Position numbers and translations under genes: made by a program | In this document: positions 9,403 to 64,000 of the stretch, piece by piece | Numbering within the stretch: position 1 is the first letter of the stretch | Layout: every line of letters starts with the position of its first letter | The notes under the pieces: generated by a model | What the model was told of the DNA's origin: nothing | Databases searched by the model: none | Seen by the model: the letters and a program-made list of their open reading frames with translations, nothing else | Assembly: GCA_964016885.1 (NCBI GenBank) | Contig: OZ024741.1 | Location: forward strand, 335,358,001 to 335,422,000 | Reading direction: 5' to 3' | From: Eledone cirrhosa | Taxonomy: Eukaryota | DNA length: 64,000 nt

Positions 9403-9918
9403 CATCATCATCATCATCATTTTACGTCTGCTTAATCTGGCTTGATTTCTACAGCTGGATGCCCTTCCTAACACCAACCTCATTTACAGTGAGTGCTGGG
9501 TGCTTTTTTTCCGTGGCACCTACACGTCCACTTTACAGTGTCGGCTGGGTGCTTTTGTGCCGTGGCACCTCCACGACCAGTTTGCAGTGGAATGATAGGG
9601 ACCCCTGTCCTATCATCTCATTTCTACACCTGAGTAAAGTGGAGCAATTTGAAATAATAATAATGAAAATATTGTGTACAGTGTTCAGGTGCACTACAAC
9701 TCATCAAAAAGTGTATGTATAGTACATAGGGTAATGTACAAACGTCAGGAAAATTAACAGTGATGATATACACATGTGTGCATGTGTATGGAAGGGGTAC
9801 ATCAGGTGTAGAAATAAAGTGTCTTGCTCAAGGAAAAAACACATCACCCAGTTGTGAGAATTGAACTCACAACTTTTCAATTGCAAGGCCAATGCTCTAA
9901 CCACTAAGCCATGTGCCT
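9403..9918 (-). mobile_element. tRNA-head/RTE-tail SINE interrupted by another repeat (9652-9812)
   Basis: Matches the full copies at 26331 and 32030; (cat)n tail. Confidence 0.8.
9652..9812 (-). mobile_element. 3' end of a non-LTR element with a (TTA)n tail, family unassigned
   Basis: gatgagttgtagtgcacctgagcactgtacacaataatttcattattatt also near 21525-21735, 25540-25720, 26070, 57640 and 59108. Confidence 0.6.
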
Positions 9919-10084: not shown

Positions 10085-10548
10085 TGTTATACTTTGGGAG
10101 GGTCATGTTGCCAATAAGAAACACACACACCAGTTGCTTTCACTTCAATTTATTATAAATTAAATTTATAAATTTCCTATTGGTTGGTTGGTTCCACAAC
10201 CAGATGATTGTTCATATATTGTCAAAGTTCTGTCGTCACAGATTCTGTGACCTCTTCAGTGACTGGGGATTCTTTTCTTTGTTTTTGTGCCTCTCCTTTA
10301 TTCTGTCCTACGCCATCTTGTATTTGTGTGTGTTGTGTGCTTAGTTTGCGCATGTGTTACATCCGGGTGTCTGTGTGTGTTTATATTTGTTTATTTATTT
10401 GTTTATTTATTTACATGTTACTGGTTGGTTGTTTGTTCTATGTGTGTTGTGTGTTTTCATTTTGTCCTTAATTGTAAGTTGTGATGTTGCTGTTCCATTC
10501 ATGTTTTCTATTTAATTTTGGTTGGAGCGTGTGTCCCAAAGTATAACA
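10085..10548. mobile_element. 464-bp element with 15-bp terminal inverted repeats
   Basis: tgttatactttggga...tcccaaagtataaca flanked by atat on both sides; partial copy near 41146; decayed HHR-like motif at 10221-10263 (-). Confidence 0.75.
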
Positions 10549-16490: not shown

Positions 16491-16556
16491 TATTTCATTA
16501 TATATATTTCAGGGATATCATATTAAAAATATGTTATGCCTTCTTCAGACAAAATA
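16491..16556 (-). ncRNA. Type I hammerhead (inverted twin of 16644-16709)
   Basis: Reverse complement of the + copy. Confidence 0.8.
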
Positions 16557-28352: not shown

Positions 28353-28787
28353 TCTGGTAATTTCTCTAATCGTAATTGCCCTGTTAGAACTAAATGTCCT
28401 CTTAGTAATCAATGTCTTGATAAAAATTTAGTGTATGAATGTAAGGTTATAACTGGTACTAATTCTTTTACCTATTTTGGTTCCACTTCCACTTCCTTTA
28501 AAGCAAGATTTTATAATCACAATTCTTCTTTTAAAAGAACTAACACGGCACTCTCAGAACTCATATGGTCCTTAAAGGACAAAAATATTAACTACAACAT
28601 TTCTTGGAGGAAGGTTTGCAACGCCTCTCCTTACCTGAATTCTTCCCTATCCAGAACATGTAATCTCTGCCTAGCGGAGAAATTTACCATTATCTCTAAT
28701 TTTAATTCTATAATAAATAGACGTACGGATTTATTTTCGCTCTGCTTGCATAAATCCCATAGAACTTTCCATAAAGTATACAGCTAA
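28353..28787 (+). pseudogene. C-terminal GIY-YIG endonuclease of a Penelope-like element (Naiad-like), 5'-truncated
   Basis: NCPVRTKCPLSNQCLDKNL-VYECKV...TYFGST...FKARFYNH...TALSELIWSLK...CNLCLAEK...SLCLHK. Confidence 0.85.
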
Positions 28788-47520: not shown

Positions 47521-49203
47521 ATCAGGATGTTGTTGGAGATAAGTGTGTCTGGAATGATGCAGGTGTACTTAGTGTCACGAATGATCAGAAAAAGGAGGCC
47601 TGGAAATGTCATTATGAGAGACTGATGAATGTGGAGAACAAATGGGAGAGAGAGAAATTACCCCATTAAACTTGACAGAGGGACTAGCTATTGAGATTGA
47701 CAAATATAGGGTCCAAGATGCAATTAAGGAAATGAAAAATGGTAAGGCTGCTGGACTGTCAGGGATAGTTGCTGAGATGTTGAAGGCATCAGGAGAAGTA
47801 GGCACTAAACTGGTTGCACGCATCATCAATCAAGCTATATATGGTGGTGTCATACCCAAAGACTGGTGCAGCAGTATTCTCATAAATTGCTACAGAGGTA
47901 AAGGGGATGCTCTGGAGAGGAGCAATTATAGGGGCATAAAGCTGATGGCTCAGGTTATGAAAGTGGCCGAGAGAATATTAGCGCAACTAATTAGAGAAAG
48001 GGTCAAATTAGATGAAACGCAGTTTGGTTTTGTGCCTGGGAAGAGTACAACAGATGCCCTCTTCTTAGTGAGACAACTACAAGAGAGGTTCTTAGAGAAG
48101 AATAAGCTGCTATACATAGCTTTTGTTGACCTAGAGAAGGCCTTTGATAGGGTACCCCAATCTGTCATCTGTTGGTCCCGAAGGAAACTAGGTATAGAGG
48201 AATGGCTTGTGAAGACAGTACAAGCTATGTACAAAGTAAGAGTAGGAATGGAGTTTAGTGAGGAATTCCAGATACAAGTACGAGTACATCAGGGTTCGGT
48301 CCTCAGCCCACTCTTGTTCATTATAGTCCTCCAAGCCATAACAGAGGAGTTTAAGACTGGCTGCCCATGGGAAATTCTCTATGCTGACGATCGGGTTATT
48401 ATAGCAGAATCAGTAGAGGAGCTAGAGAATAAATTCTGGCAATGGAAACAGCAGTTGGAATCAAGAGGACTGAGAGTGAACATAGCTAAGACAAAAGTGT
48501 TGATAAGTAGAAAAGAGGACAAAACTCTGATTCCGTCAGGGAAATGGCCATGTTCGATATGTAGGAAAGGAACTGGCATAAATTCTATAAAATGTACACA
48601 ATGCAGATCTTTGGTACACAAGAGATGTAGTGGGATAGAAGGCAAACTAACAGGTAGGGAAAACTACATATGCAGTAGATGTACAGGGCAATTTGACAGT
48701 AGTAATCACAGTGATAGACACATTTTTCAAATTCAGGTGGGCTCTATAGAAGTGATTGATAGCTTCCAGTACCTAGGTGATCAGATTAGCATGGTAGTAA
48801 GACATGGGCAGCAACTAAAGAGGATATGCGATGGCTGGAGAGAAATGAAGCAAGCAATGTGTGTGAACGACCAAGCATAGATGAGTTGAGAGAGAAACTG
48901 TGTATAAGAGGGATAAGTTGTGGTGTGTGGGAGAGAAGACTGAGATGGTATGGACATGTGATGCGCATGGAGGATGACCGGTGGGTAAAGAAGTGCCAAG
49001 AAATCCCAGTAGAAGGAAGACACAGTAGAGGAAGACCATGAAAAACATGGGCGGAGATAGTGAGAGCAGACCTCAGATCGCTGAAGCTCACGGAGGAGAT
49101 GACGAAGGACCGTGACAAGTGGAGAGATGATGTGCTGAATAGGAGCCGTCCAACCCTTGCAAGCAGGGAAAAGCGGACGTAAAATGATGATGATGATGAT
49201 GAT
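47521..49203 (+). mobile_element. RTE LINE fragment with internal deletions
   Basis: RT motifs FVDLEKAFD and YADD, PHD-like finger, (atg)n tail; same subfamily as 50692-53300. Confidence 0.95.
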
Positions 49204-50691: not shown

Positions 50692-53302
50692 CATGGTGGG
50701 CACAGTTACAGTTCAAGAAATGAAGAAGGAGTGAGACTTCTTGAATTTTGTGATGCAAGTACATTGACTATTTGCAACACAAACTTCCAGAAACCTGCCA
50801 ATAAACCTAATAACCTACAAATCTGGTGAGCACATAAGCCAGATTGACTTCCTGCTAGTTAGGCAGCGGGACAGGCAGATAGTGTCTAATACCAAGGCAT
50901 ACCCTGGGGAAGAATGTACCTCACAGCATAGGTTAGTTGTTAGTGATATCTCAGTAAGCAAGAGATGGAATGAGACATATAGGAAGGTGTGGAGAAGAAA
51001 GGTCTGGAAGCTAAAAGACCTTTCACTAAAATTCAAATTTAGGAAAGCCCTTCAAGATGTATACGACGAAAAAGAAGACGATTTAGAGACGTATGACATA
51101 GATAATAACTGGAAGTTCTTACGTGACAACTTGCTGAAGGCTACTGATGAAACCTGTGGCTGGAGCAGAGCTCCAACCAGACAGAGAGTGACCTGGTGGT
51201 GGAACAGCACAGTAGATAAGGCTATTAGAGACAAAAGACTAGCATGGAAGGCTTAGAAAAAGGGTGGGAGTAGGGAAGAATATACAGCCACTAAGAGAGA
51301 AGCTAGACGTCAGGTGTACTTAGCACGCAGGGAGGCAGAGAGTAGGAGGTTTGCCAATGTTCTGCGACGGGAAGATCAGAGGCGTGTGGTGTTCCACATT
51401 GCAAGGCAGTGTGTCAATGCAAATCAGGATGTTGTTGGTGATAAATGTGTCCGGAATGATGCCGGTGTACTTAGTGTCACGAATGACCAGAAAAAGGAGG
51501 CCTGGAAATGTCATTATGAGAGACTGATGAATGTGGAGAACGAATGGGAGAGAGAGAAATTACCCTTGGTAGATCCGACAGAGGGACCAGCTATTGAGAT
51601 TGACGAATATAGGGTCCAAGAGGCGATTAGGGAAATGAAAAATGGTAAGGCGGCCGGACCATCGGGAATAGTTGCTGAGATGCTGAAGGTATCAGGGGAC
51701 GTAGGCACTAAACTGGTTGCACGCATCATCAATCAGGCTATATATGGTGGTGTCATACCCAAAGACTGGTGCAGCAGTATTCTCATAAATTGCTACAAAG
51801 GTAAAGGGGATGCTTTGGAGAGGAGCAATTATAGGGGTATAAAACTGATAGATCAGGTTATGAAAGTGGCAGAAAGGATTTTAGCACAACTAATTAGAGA
51901 AAGGGTCAAACTAGATGAGATGCAGTTTGGTTTTGTGCCTGGGAAGAGTACAACAGATGCCCTCTTCTTGGTGAGACAAATGCAAGAGAGGTTCTTAGAG
52001 AAGAATAAGCCACTATACTTAGCCTTTGTTGACCTAGAGAAGGCCTTTGATAGGGTACCCCGATCTGTCATCTGGTGGTCCCTAAGGAAGCTGGGTGTTG
52101 AGGAATGGCTTGTGAGGACAGTGCAAACTTTGTACAGGGGTACTCCCAGTAAAGTCAGGGTAGGAATGGAGTTTAGTGAGGAATTCCAGATACAAGTAGG
52201 AGTACATCAGGGTTCGGTCCTCAGCCCGCTCTTGTTCATTATAGTCCTCCAAGCCATAACAGAGGAGTTTAAGACTGGCTGTCCATGGGAACTTCTCTAT
52301 GCTGACGATCTGGCTCTTATGGCAGAATCAGTAGAGGAGCTAGAGAATAAATTCCGGCTATGGAAACAGCAGTTGGAAGCAAGAGGACTGAGAGTAAATC
52401 TAGCTAAGACAAAAGTGTTGATGAGTAGAAAAGAGGACAAACCCTGATTCCGTCAGGGAATGGCCATGTTCGATATGCAGAAAAGGAACTGGCATAAATT
52501 CTATAAAATGCACACAATGTAGGTCCTGGGTACACAAGAGATGTAGCGGGATAGCAGGCAAACTAACAGGTAGGGAGAAATATGTATGCAGTAGATGTAC
52601 AGGGAAATTAGACAGTAGAAGTCGCACTGATAGACACATTTTTCAAATGCGAGAGGGCGCTATAGAAGTGGTGGATAGCTTCCGGTACCTAAGAGATCAG
52701 ATTAGCATGGGAGGAGGGTGTTCCGAGGCCATAGTATCTAGAATAAGGATGGGTTGGAAGAAGTTTAGGGAGCTGCTTCCTCTGTTGACGAAGAAGGGTT
52801 TCTCCCTGCGTACGAAAGGCCGGTTGTATGATGCCTGTGTGAGGAGCGCGATGCTGCATGGTAGTGAGACATGGGCAGCAACCGCAGAAGATATGCGACG
52901 GCTGGAGAGTAATGAGGCAAGCATGCTCCGTTGGATGTGCAGTGTAAATGTGCGTGAACGACCCAGCATAAATGTGTTGAGAGAGAAACTGTGTCTGAGA
53001 GGGATAGAATGTAGTGTACGGGAGAGGAGACTGAGGTGGTATGGACATGTGATGCGCATGGAGGATGACCGATGGGTGAAGAAGTGCCAGGAAATGCCAG
53101 TTGAAGGAAGACGTGGTAGAGGTAGACCACGAAAAACATGGGCGGAGGTGGTGAGAACAGACCTCAGATCATTGAAGCTCACAGTGGAGATGACGAGGGA
53201 CCGTGACGAGTGGAGAGATGCTGTGCTGAATAAGACCCGTCCCACCCTTGCAAGCAGGGAAAAGCGGACGTAAAATGATGATGATGATGATGATGATGAT
53301 GA
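50692..53302 (+). mobile_element. 5'-truncated RTE LINE with few lesions
   Basis: End of APE (SQHRLVV), full RT (QFGF, GVHQGS, YADD), C-terminus ending at 53273, (atg)n tail; stop at ~51254, frameshifts at ~50805 and ~52445. Confidence 0.95.
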
Positions 53303-54026: not shown

Positions 54027-54074
<48 letters not shown>

Positions 54075-54280
54075 ATATATATATATATATATACAATTCA
54101 ATACATAGACAGAGAAAGCCTTAAGCAATACCCCGACCAACTCCATCTCACTCAACAAACATTAGGATATACTAAAGTATTATCCCAATTTAGTGATTGG
54201 GGTGCTAACTAATCAGTATTTCGTTGATAATTAGTTGTATTATTTCATATGAGACATTTTAAAATAAATATCTCAATTCT

Positions 54281-54400
54281 TCCAGATGGCCATTTCGTTA
54301 TAAGATTTCTACATTTTGGGATAATTTCCAAGTTATGTAGAAACTTGTATATAATCCATAGTTTTATACACAAGCGGGCTCTTATAAACTCATCAGTGGA
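54281..54400 (-). ncRNA. Type I hammerhead with 93-nt branched stem II
   Basis: Stem I UCCA/UGGA, CUGAUGA, basal helix plus two hairpins, GAAA, AUGGCCAU palindrome, AUC. Confidence 0.85.
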
Positions 54401-54885
54401 TGCCCAGTCAATAACGATATAAGAATTATATCGACATTAACAGAATGGTGATGGTCTCCCTCAGCGCTAAGAAGAGACTGGTAGATTAAAATCCAGCAGT
54501 TCTCTCAAAGAAAAAAACACGCTGCCCTCAAAAGGGTAAAGGGAGGTCATCTTAAAATAAAACAATATACACGCTGGTCAATTAAACCTGTTAGCTATTA
54601 ACCACGTGTATAAGATCTCAATTGGAAATTTATAAGAATAACCACATGTATAGACAACTAATTGACGCACAGAGATATTAAAACATAATAAATATATGCA
54701 TGGATCACCCATACACACACATAGCTATTCTCTAAGGCTAAATCAGACATGGGATATAAGGAAGATCAATCAGTATTTCATATAAAAAAATAATAATAAA
54801 GATAGTCATACCCTATATCTGGACTCCACATCATTCTTCCAAGAGTATATATTCAAGGTATATATATATACACATATATATATAC

Positions 54886-54924
<39 letters not shown>

Positions 54925-54928
54925 CATA

Positions 54929-54964
<36 letters not shown>

Positions 54965-54967
54965 CCC

Positions 54968-55024
<57 letters not shown>

Positions 55025-55096
55025 CATATATATATATATATCCATATATCTATATACATATATATATACCCATATATATATATATATATATATATA

Positions 55097-55745
55097 TCAT
55101 CAATCATCATCATCAACGTTTAACGTCCGTGTTCCACGCTTGCATGGGTTTGGACGGGGGTTTTCCCACTTGAGGCAAGAGTGATTGTCTTGCTCGCATA
55201 GGACTGTCTGGCAGGTTTTCTACAGTTGGATGCCCTTCCTAACACCAACCACATTTACAGTGTGGGTTTGGGAGGTTTTTACCGTGTTGCCTACACGGCC
55301 ACATTACAGCGTGGACTGTGTGTTTTTTTGTCGTGACACCTACACGATCTCATTTGTTTTGGTCTGGATGGTGTGGCACCAACATAACTTTACATAGAAG
55401 GGGGGGCGGTGTGGATGGGGCGGGGGGTGGGACGGGGGTGTATTTTGTTAGAGATGCCTACTGACTGTAGTAGGTTTTACTATGTATTTAGGTAAAGCGG
55501 GTCTTCTCTATTACTGAGTACCGCCAAAGGTCTCGGTCCAGTGACATTGTCTTGGAGAGGTGTAAGTGTGTGAGGTCGGAATTTATCATGTCGTCCCAGG
55601 TTTTTCTAGGTCTGCCTATTCCGTGGCTACCGTCTATCTTTATTGCCCTGCACTTTGTTATACAGCTATCGACTTTCATGCGCATCACGTGTCCATACCA
55701 ACGTAGCCTTCTCTTGAGTAAACAACATCTGATCCCTCTTATTTC
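55097..55745 (-). mobile_element. RTE LINE 3' fragment with long 3' UTR
   Basis: [12 protein letters not shown]...GRPRKTW peptide, then C-rich linker, shared SINE module and (atg)n. Confidence 0.9.
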
Positions 55746-62992: not shown

Positions 62993-64000
62993 CCCAACAT
63001 AGCCTCATAGTTAGTGACCTCATAGTCAGGACTAGACGTACTCGACAACAGAGGAGGACTACCCTGAGGCAAAGAATATAGAAGTTGAAGGACCCCACAC
63101 AGCCAGTAACAAATTTAAAAGCATATTACTTGATGCTTTTGACAGTGAGGAAGAGCAATTAGAGACGTACAATATAGAGGAACAGTGTGAATTCTTGAAA
63201 GTTAAACTGCTGAAGGCGACAGTTGGAATCTGTGGCTGGAGCAGACCTGTGGGCAGGAGGAGAGTAACATGGTGGTGGAACAGTAAGGTTGAGGAGACAA
63301 TCAAAGCCAAAAAAGCAGGATTGGAAAGTAAGGCAGGATGGGGGAAGTAGAGAACACTATCAAGTGGCCAGGAGAGAAGCTAGGAGGCAAGTGTACTTTG
63401 CAAGAAGGGAAGCAGAGGATAGAAAGTTCAAGCATGTTCTACAACGCGAGGACCAAAAATGTGAGGTGTTCAGCATTGCAAGACAATGTGTCAAGGAAAA
63501 CTGTGATATTGTTGGGGAGAAGTGTGTTCATAATGATGATGGTGTACTCACTCTCACTGATACTGATAAGAAGGTGGCTTGGAAGTGATACTATGAGAGA
63601 CTATTAAATGAGGAGAATAAATGGGAAAAAGATAGTCTGCCCCAATCGATCTAATAGAGGGACCAGCAGTGCAAGTTAAAGGTAGTATAATAAGTAAGGC
63701 AATCAAATATATGAAGACAGGCAAGGCAGGTGGGCCTTCGGAGATAGTTGCTGAAATGCTGAAAGCATCTGCAATGGTAGGACATACTATGGTCATCCGG
63801 ATAGTAAACCAAGTAATACAGAATGGGGTCATACCAAATGACTGGCATAGCAGCAGCATCATTAAGTTAGTTGACCAGGTCATGAAGGTCACAGAAAAAG
63901 TTATAGCACAACTAATCAGAGATCGAAATGCAGTTTGGGTTTGTGTCAAGTAAAGGTACCACAGATGCTCTTTTCCTTGTACAACAACTACAGGAGAAGT
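62993..64000 (+). mobile_element. Degraded RTE LINE fragment running off the window
   Basis: ARREARRQVYFARREAE, GKAGGPSEIVAEMLK peptides homologous to the 12553 copy. Confidence 0.9.

Follow-up and report, generated by a model that had tools for sequence, protein, structure and literature searches.

The minus strand of a 64,000-nt stretch of Eledone cirrhosa DNA (contig OZ024741.1, positions 335,358,001 to 335,422,000; hereafter the window) carries a type I hammerhead motif at 54281–54400, in which the core boxes and three stems are present and stem II is enlarged into a long forked arm. The motif reads UCCA-CUGAUGA-(93 nt)-GAA-AUGGCCAU-C/UGGA. Paired substitutions have preserved this arm in four families of mobile element, so the feature is likely a genuine ribozyme variant that standard searches have overlooked. 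It belongs to a high-copy Penelope-like repeat of ~760 nt, and we consider it probable that transcripts of this repeat cleave themselves as dimers and that the products are re-inserted at (TA)n. The ribozyme is a variant of a known one in a known kind of element; what is new is the structure of the branched stem II. An earlier sequence-only reading had proposed a hammerhead with an intact core at this position without assigning a strand, and the proposal was borne out on the minus strand.

All features of the motif lie on that strand. The 5' strand of stem I (UCCA, 54397–54400), which shows a U-A to C-G change in family 2, is followed by the catalytic core CUGAUGA (54390–54396), the stem II insert, the core GAAA (54293–54296) and the palindromic stem III (AUGGCCAU, 54293–54286) with C17 at 54285 (together 54285–54293). 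The family alignment places the 3' strand of stem I (UGGA) at 54281–54284, and cleavage is predicted from the sequence to fall between 54285 and 54284. The arrangement CUGANGA ... GAAA ... UH is present, with core boxes intact in 99 of 122 distinct copies; in the four families, six of the seven columns of the first box (only N7 varies) and all four of the second are the same. Three helices surround the core, helix I being open-ended, and in the RNAalifold consensus all three show two-sided changes. H17 is never G among 14 aligned copies, and positions 10.1-11.1 form a U-U mismatch in families 2 and 4. Each of the four families has a short palindromic helix III built from a different self-complementary 8-9-mer; the self-duplex of the window copy is predicted at −11.3 kcal/mol. 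The AUC site and the palindrome AUGGCCAU of the sequence-only reading are present in the window copy but particular to it, as most family-1 copies have GUC and ACGGCCGU; both differences are CpG-type transitions.

The stem II insert (54297–54389) is 93 nt long in the window copy, as had been claimed, but 95–97 nt family-wide, the window copy having a 4-nt deletion in the loop of hairpin B. Folded alone, it forms a three-way junction composed of a basal helix and two hairpins, in which the junction strand GCCC stays single-stranded (−26.5 kcal/mol, z −5.92; 0 of 200 shuffles equal it), which agrees with the branched stem II described in the sequence-only reading. The inserts of all four families, folded alone, take a like shape (z −2.9 to −5.9). 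The 5' strand of the basal helix spans 54380–54389, its top pair being A-U in six alignment rows and U-A in another six, and the 3' strand (54297–54305) is located by the fold and the family alignment. Hairpin A (54344–54374) has 11 bp in the window copy, including one G-U, and combines a variable sequence with a kept structure, with two-sided changes in four of nine pairs and 98% of cells paired. Hairpin B (54306–54343) consists of an outer helix, an internal loop and an inner helix. It exists as anticipated, but its family-wide inner helix has 3 bp, GG(A/U)/(U/A)CC with one compensatory pair, and not UUGG/CCAA, and its outer helix has 7 bp and not nine.

The two hairpins differ in how much of their sequence is retained. 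In family majorities, identical columns amount to 14/14 in the outer helix of hairpin B, 8/20 in the hairpin A stems and 12/41 in the flanks. Hairpin A would behave as a structure-only spacer, and the invariance of hairpin B suggests sequence-specific recognition. The most plausible reader of hairpin B may be the mobilising protein, an assignment that we hold only tentatively. A protein-binding or regulatory role, as the sequence-only reading had supposed for the extra domain, would be compatible with this invariance, while nothing points to the packaging role that it had also named.

A first look for the ribozyme region of family 1 yielded 2,841 candidates, and the 40 scored among them showed 92–94% identity. 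Three more families were reached via diverged relatives in flanks and genome samples. The unit is ~680 nt long in family 2 and ~990 nt in family 4, whose copies are young (96–99% identity). The 138 full-length ribozyme matches reduced to 122 distinct sequences, which form clusters of 32, 35, 24 and 28 with three singletons; the four main clusters are mutually 69–80% identical over the region. Extrapolation from four full copies in 1.2 Mb of samples (120 evenly spaced 10-kb pieces of contigs C1–C6) gives roughly ten thousand copies genome-wide, with a wide error. Covariation was assessed on 14 natural copies picked by hand from the 122, the rows of which are related. RNAalifold recovered the complete hammerhead with its branched stem II, both sides having changed in 9 of 34 pairs. 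For the named structure, 96.4% of 560 cells are paired and both-sided changes occur in 9 of 40 pairs (one in stem I, one at the top of stem II, four in hairpin A, one in the inner helix of hairpin B and two in stem III), with a covariation of 0.216 compared with 0.122 in shuffled and 0.029–0.057 in slid controls. The sequence-only reading had named a lack of branch conservation among family copies as one outcome that would refute it. The branches are conserved, with compensatory changes, and this check did not refute the proposal.

The expectation that standard descriptors would miss the motif was also confirmed, since comparison with the Rfam hammerhead models gave no match either at the gathering score or at E ≤ 10. 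As shorter hammerhead-like motifs in the window were missed too, the failure reflects the scope of the models. A relaxed type I descriptor retrieved 110 matches in the 1.2 Mb compared with none in order-3 Markov controls, and a stricter scan of the first 600 kb gave 54 and none, respectively. Inserts of 10–19 nt were found in 53 of the 110 matches, of 20–29 nt in 13, of 30–39 nt in 24, of 40–59 nt in 15 and of 70–99 nt in five, so that 20 are at least 40 nt long. Insert lengths in this genome grade continuously into the long ones, and a long stem II is no one-off. This continuum, the repeat context and the likely pseudoknot with the 5' flank described below go beyond the sequence-only reading. 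Literature searches that covered the main texts of largely open-access papers listed no natural example of a stem II branched on this scale, and a metagenome pattern scan returned 0 matches.

A long insert of 91 nt is present in both terminal repeats of a very young ORF-bearing (open reading frame) family resembling Penelope-like elements (PLEs; L285:2686-6196 (−), with L283, L284 and L286). Its 3.5-kb unit has open frames of up to ~785 aa and 131 scored copies at 98–100% identity. The ~785-aa protein had no Pfam match and aligned weakly to a PLE with GIY-YIG and reverse transcriptase (RT) regions (E 5e-5). A long stem II is therefore compatible with recent transposition. A by-eye look had taken this 91-nt insert as branched; its predicted fold is a rod, and it was left out of the branched count.

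The host element of the window hammerhead occupies 54096–54856 on the minus strand, between (TA)n flanks (unstranded) at 54029–54093 downstream and 54859–55097 upstream, in a (TA)n-rich animal genome of 3.0 Gb. These bounds are fixed by partial tandem junctions: at 7 of the 30 fetched family-1 loci, the unit follows a fragment that repeats its own 3' end. Twenty-seven of the 30 end at window positions 54095–54101, ~190 nt past the cut site and mostly in (TA)n, whereas the 5' ends are ragged, with starts spread across 600 nt. The resulting ~190-nt tail (54096–54280), which runs from the ribozyme to the fixed end (a putative start of reverse transcription), is similar between families; a further hairpin was read by eye at its start (54275–54250). 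Same-family tandems with at least two full ribozymes were found at 12 distinct loci, with spacings of 675–697, 760 and 989–991 nt, and one family-4 locus has an inverted 5' piece. The unit contains no ORF and has no similarity to the PLE proteins of the same genome. Penelope-like elements are described with the same hallmarks, namely one end that is fixed and a 5' side that is truncated, partial tandems, inverted 5' pieces and AT-rich targets (PMC8557442; PMC11167929), and repeats that combine a type I hammerhead with the lack of an ORF are non-LTR (long terminal repeat) retrozymes (PMC7229834). Judged by this organisation, the element is a non-autonomous PLE or non-LTR retrozyme with thousands of copies. 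The window copy, ~94% identical, is a solo monomer with a single hammerhead between two TA tracts; it is decayed and unlikely to propagate.

Some further properties of the units were recorded. As circles, ribozyme-to-ribozyme units fold better than shuffles (three units, 12 shuffles each). Units within a tandem differ by 4.8, compared with 7.7 between loci, and rare changes are common to the units in three of six loci; such differences were considered as a means of telling a circular from a tandem template, and they do not discriminate. Three runs of unrecorded kind, all from one study, consist of contigs with TA-flanked ends and a depth that is higher toward the fixed end, and are uninformative for expression or cleavage. 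A 74-nt stretch in the 5' part of the element (window 54811–54738, minus strand) has GT...AG ends and a branch-like CTGAT and is a candidate intron, although its donor seems weak in family 2 and no spliced copies were seen. Going by its size, we presume a likeness to the Penelope 5'UTR (untranslated region) intron.

A further helix may connect the arm to its flank. UGGGC (54402–54406, minus strand), the predicted 5' strand of a pseudoknot according to the family alignment, lies one nucleotide 5' of stem I and is conserved as UGGGY. It is complementary to GCCCR, located right after the 5' strand of stem II, which is GCCCG here (54375–54379, minus strand, the predicted 3' strand) and forms the junction strand that is unpaired in the isolated folds of four families. 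The helix has 5 bp, with 95.7% of cells paired and three unpaired cells in the 14-copy alignment; changes in its strands are one-sided and mostly G-U-compatible, in the family majorities exclusively so. Pseudoknotted hammerheads have been recognised by 4 or more bp that join the loop region of stem II to the flank of stem I (Perreault 2011). A like-placed helix of unrelated sequence was found in 6 of 11 long-stem-II families compared with 4 of 110 cross-family flank swaps (Fisher p 2e-5). This test took one representative per family and a helix of at least 5 bp, at least four of them Watson-Crick; its position windows were chosen after examples had been seen, two further members of one positive family were negative, and the positive family H is doubtful. 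UGGGY/GCCCR is likely a pseudoknot. As reported in PMC3088659, pseudoknots stabilise ~40% of hammerheads, are needed for fast cleavage and are constrained by stem lengths; for the helix described here, we lean slightly towards a role in activating rather than inhibiting cleavage.

Comparable pairings were observed elsewhere in the genome. An unrelated type I hammerhead at window 9195 (minus strand) has a 49-nt insert with a 5-bp stem II and one branch hairpin, and a 6–7-bp pseudoknot to its 5' flank; relatives of it are located at L110 and L143. Two more tandem hammerhead families (L154, L156, L160 and L192; L134, L142, L157, L245 and L123) have inserts of 49–52 nt and a spacing of 459–528 nt, and in both the junction strand is complementary to the 5' flank.

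We infer cleavage, circles and an autonomous partner. Tandem transcripts would be cut by paired ribozymes into unit RNAs, which are possibly circularised. As the monomeric stem III is too short, the two ribozymes would pair through its palindrome. PLE hammerheads with palindromic helix III have been described as cleaving as dimers (PMC4209133), and a self-complementary stem III peculiar to each family is what such dimeric cleavage would lead one to expect. Stem II would serve as the scaffold for a pseudoknot between GCCCR in its junction and UGGGY next to stem I on the 5' side; this pseudoknot would replace the usual contact between loops I and II and keep stems I and II parallel. A Penelope-like RT/endonuclease would likely nick (TA)n and start to copy the RNA into DNA at the fixed end, which lies ~190 nt past the cut, pass through an uncleaved or re-ligated (circular) site, and often go more than once round the unit. 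An internal RT start and AT-rich targets are reported for a PLE in PMC11167929, and retrozymes have been argued to be PLE derivatives (10.64898/2026.07.22.740005).

Several observations weigh against a cleaving, pseudoknotted ribozyme that drives transposition in this way. By number alone, two-sided pairs do not exceed the shuffle control (85/500), and the covariation comes from four independent families only. In the window sequence with its flanks, the hammerhead fold is not the minimum-free-energy (MFE) structure, and the constrained monomer fold lies 3–5 kcal/mol above the MFE in 5/5 copies. Of 40 tail-selected copies, 30 continue unbroken through the cleavage site, and 5' ends do not cluster cleanly there. 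Copy starts within −5..+20 of the cut are in excess (9/40 compared with 2.9 expected, p 0.003) and those within −5..+53 are not (10 compared with 7.2, p 0.19); the excess was rejected as a cleavage footprint, given that the starts coincide with ATATAT microhomology to the TA target. The in vitro insertion of the Anolis PLE did not need cleavage, according to PMC11167929. A tail-sharing autonomous partner was not found among 40 GIY-YIG loci, drawn from a genome with >10,000 GIY-YIG candidates, or in the 1.2 Mb of samples. In the pseudoknot helix, two-sided changes were detected in 0/5 pairs within the superfamily, nested folding of families 2–4 forms this helix in place of stem II, and its geometry, with a 4-bp stem I plus 1 nt facing a stem II of 8 bp, leaves less room than in the other families.

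These last points would also suit a UGGGY/GCCCR helix that works as an off-switch, replacing stem II so that monomers and circles stay uncleaved until a tandem partner or a PLE protein refolds the RNA. Under nested folding, this helix displaces stem II in the MFE structures of families 2, 3 and 4 and also in those of two circular units; the copies that span the cut site unbroken are consistent with it, as is the Anolis PLE hammerhead, which is reported to cleave only with protein (PMC11167929), and a short stem I beside a long stem II would by its geometry strain a simultaneous pseudoknot. However, the folding program cannot draw pseudoknots and was therefore forced to choose one helix, and three other families have an equivalent helix on a shorter stem II with near-matched stem lengths, like the activating pseudoknots of PMC3088659. 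We consider an off-switch rather unlikely. Somewhat more room must be given to the possibility that the branches are passengers in a stem II loop that tolerates insertions, the hairpins being kept for overall self-pairing of the RNA and without a specific ligand. Insert lengths run continuously from 12 to 97 nt across families, the sequence of hairpin A changes freely, flanking hairpins and whole units are structured too, and three family-2 copies, at least one of them a tandem partial, have a deletion in hairpin B. Pure structure would nevertheless be expected to covary, and the outer helix of hairpin B, with its 14/14 identical columns beside the far more variable hairpin A stems and flanks, does not fit this expectation, so that the passenger explanation is possible without being the one we favour.

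A mere hammerhead look-alike, whether a relic that does not cleave or an element for RNA recognition, is improbable. The monomer fold above the MFE and the U-U mismatch of families 2 and 4 are in its favour, along with the weak in vitro cleavage of minimal PLE hammerheads reported in PMC4209133, but natural hammerheads tolerate U10.1-U11.1 (PMC3088659), the core is invariant over 20–30% divergence apart from N7, the absence of G at H17 holds in the aligned copies, and the palindromic stem III has been rewritten in each family. As for a chance arrangement, the region is AT-rich and Rfam has no match for it, but the 110 descriptor matches compared with none in the controls, the z scores of the inserts (−2.9 to −5.9) and the cross-family covariation already refute it, and its probability is negligible. 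The reading that we adopt is a hammerhead with a conserved branched arm that likely cleaves as a dimer.

Type I hammerheads of PLEs (Cervera & de la Pena 2014, PMC4209133) share with the window motif a 4-bp helix I, a basal helix II of 7–8 bp, a short palindromic helix III suited to dimers, and a location near the 3' end of the element. They have a simple loop on helix II and are described there without tertiary contacts, whereas the window element carries ~75 extra nt in helix II, arranged as a three-way junction, and a predicted pseudoknot to the 5' flank. Animal non-LTR retrozymes (Cervera & de la Pena 2020, PMC7229834; Li et al. 2026, 10.64898/2026.07.22.740005) are likewise non-coding, low in GC and PLE-derived, with a type I hammerhead per repeat and with monomers as well as dimers or multimers. 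At 680–990 nt, the units described here are at the long end of their range (170–400 nt in PMC7229834; 51–972 bp in 10.64898/2026.07.22.740005), and their ribozyme lies outside short-helix-II descriptors. A classic tandem retrozyme was also observed in this genome, with 11 identical 310-nt repeats that each contain a short type I hammerhead (L151:281-3381 (−)).

Pseudoknotted hammerheads (Perreault et al. 2011, PMC3088659; for example the human C10orf118 ribozyme) have a similar Watson-Crick helix from the stem II loop region to the neighbour of stem I. There, a small loop II that caps a short stem II supplies the strand; here, the strand comes from the junction, on a stem of 8 bp that bears two further hairpins. 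In the pseudoknotted hammerhead that has been crystallised (PMC11300833), the topology is different again, the pseudoknot taking the place of helix II. In Poseidon PAc of Anolis (Frangieh et al. 2024, PMC11167929), the genomic end is fixed ~100–200 nt past the hammerhead, targets are AT-rich and partial tandems occur, as in our element; PAc is autonomous and its small hammerhead overlaps the ORF start, whereas the element described here has no ORF. The Naiad 'HHR_half_core' motifs (Craig et al. 2021, PMC8557442) are comparable in (TA)n targeting and in core halves that lie beyond descriptor spacing: in eight Naiad cases, the halves are 35–50 nt apart, outside the 7–17-nt spacer of the descriptor. 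They were not modelled as hammerheads in that account, and the insert here is ~95 nt. Their spacing overlaps that of the 46–52-nt pseudoknotted class in this genome, a likeness by length only.

Surveys of hammerheads in animal genomes use short-stem-II descriptors (the 7–17-nt spacer of PMC8557442), and the thousands of copies of the present superfamily are invisible to Rfam. Given the long inserts (20/110) and this Rfam-invisible superfamily, counts of PLE ribozymes and claims of their absence may be wrong. PLE hammerheads are described as minimal, without tertiary contacts and nearly inactive in vitro in PMC4209133; the recurring predicted 5'-flank pseudoknot offers a testable reason for this near-inactivity, as trimming at stem I would remove it from a construct. 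The compensatory variants that occur naturally in the four families provide a test bed for the role of the ribozyme in PLE transposition. A bolder proposal is an overlooked class of PLE hammerheads in which stem II is a multi-arm scaffold, the pseudoknot sets activity and the invariant hairpin B docks the telomerase-related RT, coupling cleavage to the choice of the RT start site. If true, such long-arm ribozymes would explain the 'half-core' motifs and the PLE clades reported to be hammerhead-less, but we regard this proposal as speculative and unlikely in its full form.

Three candidates for the autonomous partner were rejected. The PLE ORF at L074 adjoins a family-3 copy because two elements inserted separately into the same TA tract; L287, a duplication, lacks an ORF; and the fusion at L020 is a single case. 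There, the 3' end of family 1 directly abuts a Neptune-like 3'UTR, with no TA spacer between the two, possibly by template switch. Neptune-like GIY-YIG elements (3' regions of L191, L192 and L086–L105) have apparent minimal hammerheads with a U3-A8 core variant, as judged by eye.

The window contains further PLE-type hammerhead motifs, none of them recovered by Rfam, at 16548(−)/16651(+), 29750(+), 56236(−), 35320(−)/35504(+) and 16982(−), several of which stand as inverted pairs. Additional motifs, likewise missed by Rfam, were recognised by eye at 10259(−), 23115(+), 24417(−), 33292(−) and 57070(−). A fragment of a PLE endonuclease region is located at 28365–28769 (+). Frameshifted copies of reverse transcriptases of the LINE (long interspersed nuclear element) type, which we take to be RTE-like, occupy 50768–53273, 47618–48880 and 63036–63953 (all +), with an RVT_1 match for 51257–52444 (E 3e-30). 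A partial tRNA match at 9854–9911 (−) is probably the head of a short interspersed nuclear element (SINE).
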